Assembly: GCA_964655765.1 (NCBI GenBank)
Contig: CAZZNI010000002.1
Span: 1-63,628 of the forward strand
Reading direction: 5' to 3'
Source of the DNA: an uncultured Gammaproteobacteria bacterium
GTDB lineage: Bacteria; Patescibacteriota; Microgenomatia; PFEM01; CAYPPS01
Length of the DNA stretch: 63,628 nucleotides
Below are positions 3,641-63,628 of the stretch, in pieces. Below the pieces are notes generated by a model, which saw only the letters and a program-made list of their open reading frames with translations, was not told the DNA's origin and searched no databases. Positions within the stretch are counted from its first letter, which is position 1; each line of letters begins with the position of its first letter. Position numbers and translations under genes: made by a program.

Positions 3641-4303
3641 ATGAAAAATACAAAAAATAAAAAAAGAAAAATTGGTTTTTCTGCGGGGACGGTTTTGGTA
3701 TTGTTTTTTTCGGCCATTCCATTTCTTTTGTTAGTTCTTTGGCTCAAAGTTTTGGTTGGCCAGGTTCAAATAAGGTTTAATAGTTTTCCGCAATTTGGGA
3801 TGGCGAAAGATTACCAATCTTGTGAGGAAAACAACGAAGTAATTGATCCAGCTGATTTTAATCAAATTAGTCAAGGATTAACTCCTCAACAAATTAAAAT
3901 AGAATCAGTTGGTATTGATTTGCCGATTATCGCTGTTTCTTTGGAAGAAGGGACCTGGCAGGTTAACGACAATGTGGCCAATTATGCTCAAGGGACAGCT
4001 TTAATAAACATGGACAATGGTAATATCGGAATTTATGGACATGATCGGGAAAATGTTTTTTCTCAGATTAAAAAACTTGCTGTTGGAGATAAAATTATTC
4101 TTTTTTCTGACAACTTTAAAGCAACCTATATAATTACCGATTCTTTTGTTTCTGAAAAGGAAGATGTTGATGTTTTTTTTGAAACAGAAGAGCCTGTTTT
4201 GACCCTTGTTACTTGCGATGGAGTCTTGTCTGAAAAGAGGTATATTGTTAAAGCAAAATTTGATACAATGCAAAAAATAATGTGTTATGAAAATAATTTA
4301 TAG
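3641..4303 (+). CDS. Sortase
   Basis: N-terminal TM; GNIGIYGH, LTLVTC and downstream R (KRYIVKA) give the His/Cys/Arg triad. Confidence 0.9.
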   Translation: MKNTKNKKRKIGFSAGTVLVLFFSAIPFLLLVLWLKVLVGQVQIRFNSFPQFGMAKDYQSCEENNEVIDPADFNQISQGLTPQQIKIESVGIDLPIIAVSLEEGTWQVNDNVANYAQGTALINMDNGNIGIYGHDRENVFSQIKKLAVGDKIILFSDNFKATYIITDSFVSEKEDVDVFFETEEPVLTLVTCDGVLSEKRYIVKAKFDTMQKIMCYENNL

Positions 4304-59925: not shown

Positions 59926-60423
59926 ATGAACAAAAAGAAGACTTTTGTCAGTCCTAGTTTGGGCCGGGTTAGCCGGTTATCTTTAATTGGGGAACTGATT
60001 AATTTTATGCACGATCAACCGGATAGTTTTTATCGTTTGGTGATCGGTACTGACTCGAAAACGGCGCTTTTAGACGGTAAAAAACCGGTTGATTTTATTA
60101 CCGCTATAGTTATTCACCGTCAGGGCAAGGGCGCCCGCTATTTCTGGCAACGGCGGACAATTGATAAAGTGGCGACCTTGCGCGATAAAATTTACACCGA
60201 AACCGTGTTATCGATTAAAATGGCGGAGACAATCGTTCCCCGGTTTAAACAAAGATTAAACGGCCAGAGTTGTCAGGTAGAAATTCATATTGATGTTGGA
60301 GCGGTGGGAGAAACTAGAGATATGATTAAAGAAGTGGTTGGTATGGTTAATGGCAATGGCTATGCGGCTAAAACCAAACCACTTTCCTTCGGAGCGACTA
60401 ATGTTGCTGACCGCCACACTTAA
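59926..60423 (+). CDS. Ribonuclease H-like YkuK (DUF458) family protein
   Basis: [35 protein letters not shown]. Confidence 0.88.
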
Positions 60424-61082
60424 AGTAGATCCGGCCGTTGTTTTTTGGTTTTTTCCAGAGCTTTTTTAAGCCGCCAGTCGTCTACCTTTTTATGATTGCC
60501 GGAAAGTAAAATCGGTGGCACCTTTTCTCCTTTGTAATCAGCTGGTCTGGTGTAGTGAGGGTACTCAAGTAAATTGTCAGTAAATGATTCATTTTTAGTG
60601 GCTTCTGATTTTTCTAAAACTCCAGGGAGCAGTCTTACCGTGGCATCAACTATTGCCATGGCTGGTATTTCACCGCCGGTTAAGACAAAGTCACCGATGG
60701 AAATTTCTTCATCAACCAACCCAGAAACTCTTTCATCAACACCTTCGTAATGCCCGCAAATAAAAATTAAGTGTTTTACTCTAGAAAACTGAATCGCCTT
60801 TTTTTGATTAAAAACTTTACCCCTCGGACTTAAGAGAATCACTTTTGACCCTTTTTTCTTTAAATCCTTTAAGGCTAAATCAATCGGTTCAATCATCATT
60901 ACCATGCCAGCGCCGCCGCCGAAAGGCCGGTCGTCAATCGTTTTATGTTTATCTATTGTCCATTTTCGTAAATTATGGAGATTGATGTTTACCTTACCTT
61001 TTGCTACGGCTCGCTTGACAATTGAATGGCTAAACGGTCCGTCAAACATTTCTGGAAAAATAGTTAAAATGTCAATTTTCAT
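60420..61082 (-). CDS. trmD: tRNA (guanine-N1)-methyltransferase
   Basis: [41 protein letters not shown]. Confidence 0.97.
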
Positions 61083-61891
61083 AGGTCAAACGGGCTTTTA
61101 ATATTTTTTAATTTTGGGTTTGTTACTTGAGTATAAAGCTGTGTGGTTCTGATATTCAGATGACCTAAAAGCTCTTGTACATAACGGACATCAATACCGT
61201 TTTCCAGTAAGTGGGTAGCAAAACTGTGTCTTAAGGAATGGAAACTGGCCTCTTTTTTAATGCCGGTTTTTTTTAAACAAGCCTGAAACACTTTTTGCGC
61301 TGTTCTTGTGGTTAATTTTCCGCCGCGCTCGCTAGCAAAAACATAATCGTTGCCACTTTTTCCTGCCAGGAAATTTTGCAAACCTGTTTTTATTTTTTCA
61401 GGGAAAACAGTAATTCTGTCTTTGTTGCCTTTTGCTTTCTTGATATGGATCGTTAATTCACTGAAATCAACATCTTTTATCTTTAAAGTAACGATTTCAC
61501 TTACTCTGAGTCCTGCGCCGTAAGCCAAAGATAGCAACAATTTGTGCTTGGTATTTGATACTGATTCAATAATGCGTTTTATCTCTTTCCTTGACAAAAT
61601 TACCGGTAGTTTTTTATGCCTTTTGGCGTATGAAAAGCGGTAGGAGAAATGTTGGCCATATATTTTTTCGATGACATACTTCATTGTTGCATGATAGAGA
61701 TTAAGGGTATACGGAGAATAATTTTTATCTGCCAATATGGCAAGATATTGTTTAAATTCGCTTTCGGAAATTTTATTTAAAGGTTTTTGAAAATGTTGGT
61801 ATATTTTTTGAGCGCACAAAGAGTACGACTTAATTGTTCGGGGACTAAATGCCGATATTTTCATTTCTTGTTGCATTTTTGTAATTAGCAT
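61079..61891 (-). CDS. Integron-integrase-like tyrosine recombinase
   Basis: [11 protein letters not shown]-like N domain, [47 protein letters not shown]; divergent from the cassette ORFs. Confidence 0.88.
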
Positions 61892-61932
61892 AATAAAATT
61901 ATATCATGATTTGTTGTTTATACGAACAACAA

Positions 61933-61954
61933 TTCGCATAAACACTAGTTATGT
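61933..61954 (+). other. Putative attI-like site
   Basis: TTCGCATAAACACTA-GTTATGT just upstream of the integrase; GTT core at 61948. Confidence 0.5.
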
Positions 61955-62114
61955 GTAATCATTTTTTTAAAAATTTGATTATTTGCAAAGAGATTTTTAA
62001 AATAAGGAAAGAAAATTTAATTTTTTCTTTATAATTGAGAGGGATAAACGGAATTCCTCCGCTATCGCTCCGAAATGAATAATTTTATAAACTTTTAATT
62101 TTTAATAAAATATT

Positions 62115-63158
62115 ATGAAAAAACTTTTAACAATTACTGGAATAGGAATCGTGGTGTTAGTTTTGGCATTTTTTACTTGGCAATACTTTGTTCCACACAA
62201 TAATATTCAGAGTAATATGTCTGGAAATTACCTTGGAAGTGATTATAAGGGAAATTATGTTTGGGGTGGAGCCATGAATTTGGCATGGAATGAATTGAAC
62301 GAAAATATATTGCATGAAAAACTACAACTAAACACAAACGACGAAACAGCTCTAGAAATGGTCAAAAAGTTAAATGACGCCCCATTTTCAAAAAGTGATT
62401 TAGATGAAGAAAGCTATTATGTTAAGAGTGGCTATGGACAAAGTACTGTTGATGAAATTAATCGTGAATCAAAAAAGAAATTCCCATCGAAAAGTTTTAG
62501 TGATTTAAAAATTGATTTGTCTCCAAAAGATATTATTTCCTATGCCTACTTTTTGAAAGAAGTTGAGTATGAAACTATGTTTAAGAAAGATGTTGTTTTA
62601 TTCAAAGGCCAGAAAGTAGAAGGTTTTATTGCCGATAACGAAGCTCAAAGAGAAAATGTAAAAATTATCAAATACCAAAATGATGATAAGTTTATTATCA
62701 AATTGCAGTTGAAAGACAAAAATGATGAACTAATTTTGGCAAAAGGATATGATATGAAAAACCAACAGACAGTTGTCGACGAAATTAATCAAAATAATAA
62801 AAAGAATCTTGCAACAATAGGCGGATCAGACAAATTTAAAGCTCCAAAATTACACCTAGATCATCATCGCGATTATGTTGAACTAATTAAAAAATGGTTG
62901 TCAAATGAAGGTTTTAGTGATTATTATATTGCTAAAATGTTTGAAAACATTAAGTTTGATATGGATGAAAAAGGAGCAAAAGTTGAGAATGAAGCAGTGA
63001 TAGCAGTAATAGGTAGATCTGCTGGACCAAGCAAAAAACCTAAAATTAAAAATTTTATTTTGGATAAACCATACTGGGTAATAATGAAAAGAGCCGATTC
63101 TCAAAATCCATATTTTATTTTAGGAGTCAATAATGTGGAGTTAATGGAAGCAAAATAA
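62115..63158 (+). CDS. Membrane-anchored serpin-like protein (putative cassette gene)
   Basis: C-terminal FDMDEKGAKVENEA...FILDKPYWVIM...PYFILGVNN resembles the serpin hinge/RCL/signature region; AT-rich. Confidence 0.6.
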   Translation: MKKLLTITGIGIVVLVLAFFTWQYFVPHNNIQSNMSGNYLGSDYKGNYVWGGAMNLAWNELNENILHEKLQLNTNDETALEMVKKLNDAPFSKSDLDEESYYVKSGYGQSTVDEINRESKKKFPSKSFSDLKIDLSPKDIISYAYFLKEVEYETMFKKDVVLFKGQKVEGFIADNEAQRENVKIIKYQNDDKFIIKLQLKDKNDELILAKGYDMKNQQTVVDEINQNNKKNLATIGGSDKFKAPKLHLDHHRDYVELIKKWLSNEGFSDYYIAKMFENIKFDMDEKGAKVENEAVIAVIGRSAGPSKKPKIKNFILDKPYWVIMKRADSQNPYFILGVNNVELMEAK

Positions 63159-63346
63159 GGTGTTTTGAAAAATGAAATTCACCCCTAATCCCTCTTTCAT
63201 TTTTCAAAACGAAAAAAATTAAATTTTCGAATAATAAAAAAATCTCTCTGCAGAAAAATAATAAAGATAAAAAATGACTTCTCCGCTTCGCTACGATCGT
63301 GTTGCACTCTCCTTTTCGACTCTTTTTAGTTACCCAGGATCGGGCC

Positions 63347-63461
63347 AGATAACACAGTATATGTGGTTCGCTCGTTGCACTTCGCTCACTCATATTCCGC
63401 CGAAATTTGATAAAATAAATCAAGGTTTAGGGAGGACATTAGACACGCCGAAATGTTATAT
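63347..63461 (+). other. Putative attC-like recombination site
   Basis: AGATAACA (63347) and TGTTATAT (63454-63461) are complementary ends; internal hairpin ATATGTG...CACTCATAT. Confidence 0.55.
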
Positions 63462-63506
63462 AAAATTCGACCTTTAACTTTAGAAATAATAATTTAAAAT
63501 AGTACT

Positions 63507-63628
63507 ATGAACAAAACAACAAAAACTGCATTAATAATTATTGGCGTTTTGTTGTTATTAAATGGATTGTTAAATATCATTGACGATGGAACAATCTTAA
63601 CTTACGACATTGCCTCCATTTTATCTGG
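63507..63628 (+). CDS. Small membrane protein, second putative cassette (partial)
   Basis: MNKTTKTALIIIGVLLLLNGLLNIIDDGTILTYDIASILS, open to the window end. Confidence 0.6.
   Translation, partial: MNKTTKTALIIIGVLLLLNGLLNIIDDGTILTYDIASILS

Follow-up and report, generated by a model that had tools for sequence, protein, structure and literature searches.

The window analyzed here, a contig of 63,628 nucleotides (CAZZNI010000002.1) from an uncultured member of the Patescibacteriota, ends in a locus where, very probably, an integron-like gene-cassette platform begins; platforms of this kind are widespread in the candidate phyla radiation (CPR)/Patescibacteria. In the proposed arrangement, a small XerA/IntI-like tyrosine recombinase would be encoded beside a fixed attI-like docking site with two arms of the recombinase type, a spacer of 7 nt and G|TT. 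At this G|TT, cassettes would be inserted; each would carry one (rarely more) open reading frame (ORF) directed away from the recombinase and, behind it, an attC-like palindrome. The recombinase presumably catalyzes cassette insertion, the site probably acting in single-stranded, folded form as it does in integrons, and exchange of one strand at G|TT would then be completed by replication. The window comprises all of contig C2; the assembly to which it belongs (705 kb, 35 contigs, 96% complete) has the size of a CPR/Patescibacteria genome. The locus fills the final 2.5 kb of the contig, up to its end at 63628, and the G+C content falls across it from about 0.42 to 0.26–0.30, the genome as a whole being at about 40%. 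The features that the argument needs are the following.

61079–61891, minus strand: recombinase gene, 270 aa, a XerA/IntI-like simple tyrosine recombinase (assigned by ORF, Pfam, NCBIfam and PDB alignment).
61918–61948, strand unassigned: attI-like docking site, conserved in related loci.
61918–61926 and 61933–61941: arms of the docking site, TTATACGAA and TTCGCATAA, separated by a 6-nt spacer and followed by the 7-nt spacer ACACTAG.
61949–63455, plus strand: predicted cassette 1, 1507 bp, with TTATGTG at its start and its own attC-like site at its end (boundaries from covariance model R1, described below, and the family rule).
63345–63463, minus strand: attC-like site, an R1 match of 60.8 bits (E 3.6e-14) over model positions 1–121.
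63345–63353, 63356–63366 and 63439–63449: R'' CCAGATAAC, L box AGTATATGTGG and partner L box TTAGACACGCC of this site, followed by GAAAT and G63455|TTATATA.
63456–63628, plus strand: start of predicted cassette 2, beginning with TTATATA; its ORF starts at 63507, is seen over 40 hydrophobic residues and runs off the contig.

A preliminary description of this DNA had noted a 270-aa IntI-like recombinase that is divergent from AT-rich ORFs, and the minus-strand ORF together with the 26–30% G+C of the divergent ORFs beyond it bears this out. The protein contains the Pfam domains Phage_int_SAM_4 (PF13495) and Phage_integrase. It passes NF040815, the model for the XerA-type “site-specific tyrosine recombinase/integron integrase” (227.7 bits, cut-off 220), with residues 7–264 matching profile positions 4–262 of 263. 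With the integron-integrase model TIGR02249 it reaches 198.6 bits in two pieces, below the cut-off of 265 bits, and with NF011946 122.2 bits against a cut-off of 435. The ranking of PDB structures is headed by XerA (4a8e, 143.8 bits; 5hxy, 139.8 bits), followed by IntI4 (2a3v, 125.6 bits in two pieces), and XerD (89.4 bits) and XerH (61.9 bits) score lower. Judged by profile and PDB scores, the recombinase would be placed nearest to XerA, then IntI4 and then XerD. The catalytic residues R129, K157 (or K154), H218, R221, H244 and Y253 are present by motif. Their motifs (GLR129, KGNK157, H218-SL-R221, GH244 and LY253) align with both XerA and IntI4, and it is from this alignment that their roles are assigned. 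The reading frame is intact and, at its stop codon, overlaps the beginning of trmD (60420–61082) by 4 nt.

What is missing from the protein is the extra domain of IntI. Residues 173–195 (23 aa) stand opposite residues 179–244 (66 aa) of VchIntIA/IntI4 in the alignment to 2a3v, leaving about 43 residues fewer than in IntI4 at the position of the extra domain; the segment has no room for the additional part, as had been suggested before. A passage in Ghaly et al. (2022; PMC9668308), citing Messier and Roy (2001), names the additional domain around patch III as a defining feature of IntI and as necessary for integron recombination. In the part of Smyshlyaev et al. (2021; PMC8138268) that deals with Xer-related recombinases, a “Cand” subgroup from candidate phyla is listed and no mechanism is given for it.

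The locus was compared with 160 related loci, 80 from genomes spanning many CPR lineages and 80 from metagenomes. On the plus strand, the docking site and the beginning of cassette 1 read TTATACGAA-CAACAA-TTCGCATAA-ACACTAG|TTATGTG (61918–61955). The GTTATGT core that had been reported beside the integrase lies at 61948–61954, 57 nt upstream of the recombinase start, and proved to be the junction of the docking site, at the end of a site that is conserved in the relatives. From the sequence, the crossover is predicted to occur between G61948 and T61949. In gene orientation, almost every relative has the same succession of a variable arm with YAAC at its end, TSGTTTT as the spacer, TATRCGAA as the next arm and then one more arm. 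Upstream of the gene, a strict form of the docking pattern is found in 55 of 73 genome loci and in 63 of 73 metagenome loci, the misses being mostly near-variants, and the core of the docking site occurs once in the genome. Among the contigs of the genome set that end upstream of the gene, 5 of 37 begin 0–2 nt from the AAC, which corresponds to G|TT. An exact search of the metagenome contigs with 28 nt of this strain's docking site gave 0 matches. A dif-like 11-6-11 palindrome at 61908–61935 was also considered and was replaced by the family-wide arms at 61918–61941 after comparison with the relatives.

The attC-like sites form a conserved and polar family that is exclusive to the upstream side of such recombinase genes. 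They are imperfect palindromes of 80–150 nt with two inner hairpins, and their layout in gene orientation is R'' NNNNYAAC, GTTY, L'', a hairpin, AWTTGGGTGA, a second hairpin, GAAC, L', T and R' G|TTRNNN. The family core is GTTRNNN and includes the classical GTTAGGC among its variants, so the earlier statement that the cores are GTTAT and not GTTRRRY does not hold for the family. A plain count of GTT...AAC hairpins did not separate the two sides of the gene (185 upstream vs 156 downstream). A generic structural search gave 68 matches upstream on the gene strand and 14, 11, 8 and 7 matches in four control classes, an upstream excess that was found despite there being more bases downstream than upstream. 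We built the covariance model R1 from 29 aligned sites of other genomes, with the window left out. Of its 99 matches in the genome loci, 98 are on the gene strand, and the full-length ones on this strand (95, in 43 loci) all lie upstream of the recombinase. The metagenome loci gave 93 matches, without exception upstream and on the gene strand (positions checked by eye), which brings the count for both sets to 191 of 192 on the strand of the recombinase. Within the 29 sites, both partners vary in 8 of 12 L-box pairs; the observed co-variation score was reached by 0 of 500 shuffles. The attC-like sites of relatives also fold far better than shuffled sequence, at z values of −3.3 to −5.4.

The DNA that is delimited by these sites is organized in units with a median body of 685 nt, with up to 7 sites per locus, and in 67 of 70 units the longest ORF is directed away from the recombinase. 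The five variable bases that follow G|TT complement the R'' of the next site (or the docking junction) perfectly in 42 of 74 cases, often over a distance of more than 1 kb; a first pass had given 29 of 58. In controls, the R'' of the same hairpin was complementary in 3 of 82 cases, and random pairs were complementary in 5.4%. Such complementarity of unit ends is the signature of units that were formerly circles closed at G|TT. In the window, R'' complements the start of cassette 1 at four of the five variable positions.

Near-identical loci give a view of turnover at the docking site. Loci L105 and L108 have recombinase genes that are 99.9% identical and share the upstream 136 nt at 99.3% identity, and they are unrelated beyond a point 3 nt left of the AAC; L047 and L053 diverge 18 nt beyond the AAC. 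The metagenome contigs L164 and L165 have recombinase genes that are 99.6% identical and share 644 nt, after which the next 126 nt of L164 reappear in L165 562 bp farther out. The extra 562-bp segment of L165 spans from the AA|C of one R1 match (1789–1867) to the AA|C of another (2349–2449). Side by side, L164 124–224 and L165 1789–2449 present a natural cassette insertion or deletion, cut exactly at the predicted crossover. The preliminary description had proposed a non-canonical integron class, and this proposal is supported by the missing insert, the conserved docking site, the polar sites and the cassette-like units.

The site in the window itself had been recognized earlier as an ATAACA...TGTTAT site between ORFs, and it is the sole R1 match in the window. 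ATAACA (63349–63354) and TGTTAT (63454–63459) bracket 111 bp between the ORF at 62115–63158 and the ORF starting at 63507. Positions 63350–63396 are 91% identical to loci L079, L073 and L042, and parts of 63154–63430 show 85–95% identity to non-coding DNA upstream of recombinases that have 50–65% protein identity. Both the R boxes of the site and the docking site are intact. A scan of the window with Rfam at gathering thresholds found two tRNAs and nothing further, and a promoter and terminator scan, which served as the test for a Pc promoter, found 14 promoter-like sites where 10.7 were expected, which is not above chance. The end of the contig has no overlap with any other contig of the assembly, and the far end of the array was not found.

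Several observations weigh against reading the locus as the head of a cassette platform. The window contains one complete cassette and the start of a second, the contig ends 173 bases past the site, and R1 found no second match in the 63.6-kb window or in the 705-kb assembly (150 of 281 candidates scored). The L stem of the site has 3 mismatches and 3 G.T pairs, and with z values of +0.6 and +0.5 neither strand of it has a better fold than shuffled sequence. The reads, in the form of Logan contigs of four runs, showed no joints, at a depth of the organism (2–5x) that is too low for variants. None of the 160 related loci yielded the cassette 1 protein, and an R1 match is nearby in only 1 of 7 loci of its homologues. 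Of the 47 contigs of the metagenome set with an upstream end, none begins within the 5 nt to the left of the AAC, as opposed to four that begin 36–56 nt left of it and one that begins inside the site. Finally, the 29 sites behind R1 were preselected for L-box complementarity, which makes the “percent paired” partly circular, while the variety of their L sequences is not. The copy in the window may have decayed, or the low-depth consensus may be imperfect; if the L stem is indeed weakened, this copy may be slow or frozen.

Homologous proteins number in the thousands, have 268–270 aa and 60–75% identity, and come under names that include Woesebacteria, Beckwithbacteria and CPR3. Closer to the organism, the distribution is patchy: at E <= 1e-40 the recombinase was found in 2 of 40 relatives of the genome and was absent, among others, from the same-genus genome G001 and the single-contig genomes G014 and G024. 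G001 and G014 keep the block of CAP-like, 82-aa, RNase-H-like and trmD genes without a recombinase upstream of trmD. The gene found upstream of trmD in G001 has no homologue in the genome of the window. We also observed that the trmD neighborhood is kept in the same-genus genome and in a complete relative, but with other genes upstream (loci L088 and L089), which makes the platform a lineage-specific arrival at trmD. One metagenome-assembled genome (MAG) has two copies of the recombinase (L036 and L077). One of the two relatives with an orthologue (L086, in G011:C11) has an in-frame TAA in the recombinase gene and three attC-like sites upstream, and may be an array with a broken recombinase. 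The genome of the window has two further Xer-like tyrosine recombinases, on contigs C10 and C5 (L002 and L003); one is a protein of 320 aa encoded beside gyrA-like and rRNA-methyltransferase-like genes, and the other has 287 aa. These two are the candidates for the actual dimer-resolution enzymes. Their presence, together with the patchy distribution, excludes a housekeeping Xer role as the main function of the recombinase in the window.

It is possible, although we consider it rather doubtful, that the system is real in the relatives and that the window holds a frozen relic, with a decayed L stem and a cassette 1 that can no longer be excised. The poor fold of the site relative to those of its relatives, the mismatches and G.T pairs of its L stem and its position as the sole site in the assembly all fit a relic, as does the lack of joints in the reads, and the overlap of the recombinase stop with the trmD start suggests a settled residence. 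The recombinase, however, has kept its frame and all of its catalytic motifs, and the R boxes and the docking site have stayed intact as well. The break of the contig 173 nt past the site is what would be expected of a variable or repeated array, and at a depth of 2–5x variants would escape notice and errors in the consensus are possible.

Three other explanations were considered. The recombinase could be a Xer-type chromosome-dimer resolvase with its palindrome as dif, comparable to XerS/difSL and XerH/difH, and the variable DNA could be hitch-hikers similar to integrative mobile elements exploiting Xer (IMEX). XerA is indeed the best match by family and by structure, a 9-6-9 palindrome lies beside the gene, and the “Cand” recombinases are grouped as Xer-related in the relevant part of Smyshlyaev et al. 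(2021; PMC8138268). A gene in 2 of 40 relatives that is absent even from single-contig and same-genus genomes, that is accompanied by two other Xer-like recombinases and that can be present twice in one MAG is nevertheless a poor candidate for a dimer resolvase, and polar arrays of up to 7 structured sites following an own-site rule would be unexpected of dif. We therefore regard this explanation as very improbable and largely refuted by the distribution. We rate an ordinary integrative element or prophage remnant, with an integrase at one end, repeats that represent attL and attR, and AT-rich genes as island cargo, as similarly far-fetched. It would account for AT-rich DNA beside a tyrosine recombinase, for a platform that is missing at the same place in relatives and for a cargo gene that is patchy (6 of 400 genomes), but no pair of direct repeats flanks the recombinase and the docking-site core occurs a single time. 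Moreover, the structured sites are serial, co-oriented and set at cassette spacing instead of marking two ends, and near-identical loci differ by single units beside a fixed recombinase and not by a whole element. A DNA inversion switch, with the two sites (docking and distal) in facing orientation and the 1.4 kb between them flipping, could draw on the inverted constant parts (ACACTAG|TTA vs ACTGTG|TTA on opposite strands) and on the fact that inversion would also break assemblies. It is hardly credible given the single orientation of all R1 matches but one and the co-oriented ORFs of 67 of 70 units; the differences observed between loci are insertions, deletions and replacements, and no strand-changing joints occur in the reads, at the depth stated above.

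Beyond the features of the platform as such, cassette 1 contains the following.

62115–63158, plus strand: ORF of cassette 1, 347 aa, with an N-terminal hydrophobic segment followed by a predicted serpin-like fold.
62057–62075, plus strand: leader motif CTCCGCTATCGCTCCGAAA, GC-rich and conserved, located 5' of the ORF, with the same 18–19 nt in L079 and L019.
63154–63226, plus strand: repeated hairpin module of 73 nt with a conserved loop, directly after the ORF stop.

The 347-aa protein matches no Pfam family, even at E 10. Its structure model has a pLDDT (predicted local distance difference test) of 80.5, with a disordered loop (298–312) where the reactive-center loop would lie. In a Foldseek search with this model, all of the matches listed are serpins or serpin-containing complexes (best match E 4.9e-10, probability 1.00; template modeling score, TM, 0.35–0.56). 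On the strength of the model, the product of cassette 1 is predicted to be an exported protein with a serpin fold. It has 486 relatives, many of them on contigs of 1.2–2.5 kb and some named Ignavibacteriales or Bacteroidia; those scattered over the CPR are 53–93% identical. Among 400 sampled genomes of the phylum, the protein is found in 6.

The non-coding DNA around the ORF is shared more widely. In L079, the leader motif is likewise positioned 5' of a cassette ORF, and the bin of 62057–62075 has raised depth in run X7. GC-rich motifs of the GNAGCGNAGCGNAG type (GCGAAGC-like mini-hairpins) were observed in the window at 62057–62075 and 63274–63349. Motifs of this type recur in the 5' leader and before the R'' of cassettes in many loci, and they also form mini-units without an ORF beside the docking site, for example at 3770–3912 of L079. 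The hairpin module has a perfect stem of 16 bp (63162–63177 with 63195–63210) and is 94.5% identical over 73 nt to L045; it is also present in L019 and L047, and in other relatives (L079, L067 and L078) the loop is kept and the stem is changed. In four metagenome runs, the blocks 63154–63226 and 63350–63396 are found at 37–136x with other flanks and end exactly there. The hairpin module could be mobile or regulatory.

Integrons, and among them above all the sedentary chromosomal ones such as the Vibrio cholerae array with VchIntIA, are the known system that the locus resembles most in its layout, in which a docking site with G|TT adjoins the recombinase gene and is followed by co-oriented units that mostly contain a single ORF. 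The unit ends are alike as well, being R''/L''/L'/R' palindromes with RYYYAAC/GTTRRRY-like ends and unequal spacers, and in both systems the start of a unit is complementary to its own R'', the signature of circular cassettes, and sites are similar between cassettes. IntI and the recombinase of the window also have the same type of N-terminal domain (PF13495). They differ in that the extra domain of IntI around patch III is missing from the recombinase of the window, which misses the integron-integrase cut-offs and passes the XerA-type model. The CPR sites furthermore have inner motifs (AWTTGGGTGA and GAAC) and two inner hairpins, the CPR cassettes have further conserved non-coding modules, the hosts belong to the CPR, and the CPR system is known from sequence alone.

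XerA is the product of a core gene and acts on chromosome dimers, which it resolves at one dif site. Archaeal XerA and the “Cand” recombinases resemble the protein of the window in size (about 270–290 aa) and in being without accessory domains, and they are its best sequence matches. Unlike XerA, the gene of the window is patchy (2 of 40 relatives) and has next to it polar arrays of structured sites in which cassettes turn over. XerS/difSL and XerH/difH are housekeeping systems with one site per chromosome, and IMEX of the CTX-phi type use folded single strands. As in the locus of the window, the site of these systems adjoins the recombinase gene and captures foreign DNA, possibly as a folded single strand; the CPR system differs by its serial sites, cassette-sized units and accessory distribution.

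Integrons are both defined and searched for by an integrase domain that is held to be necessary for the recombination of folded attC sites. In the literature on integrons in Patescibacteria/CPR we found no description of such a system (supplements not covered), and a term search of the IntegronFinder 2.0 paper (PMC9024848) found no mention of Patescibacteria or CPR phyla. Apparently, this is an integron-like family that has not been described and that fails the defining integrase feature of integrons. A further step would be to see in it a CPR-wide second integron lineage, in which the integrase recognizes folded attC-like DNA without the IntI domain, and which either represents the ancestral form that became classical IntI by acquiring the insert or shows that structure-specific capture of cassettes evolved twice from Xer-like recombinases; to us, the arguments for and against this step are evenly balanced. 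If a second lineage of this kind exists, the near-identical non-coding modules in distant hosts would mean that ultra-small bacteria share a pool of cassettes. Current tools would be overlooking an entire class of systems for gene capture, the structural rule by which single-strand sites are recognized would have to be revised, and the origin of integrons from Xer-like enzymes could be put in the form of a testable model. The compact enzyme of 270 aa with its sites of 80–150 nt may also lend itself to use as a recombination tool. For the CPR bacteria themselves, with tiny genomes in which few mobile elements are otherwise supposed to exist, the platform would provide a route of gene exchange.

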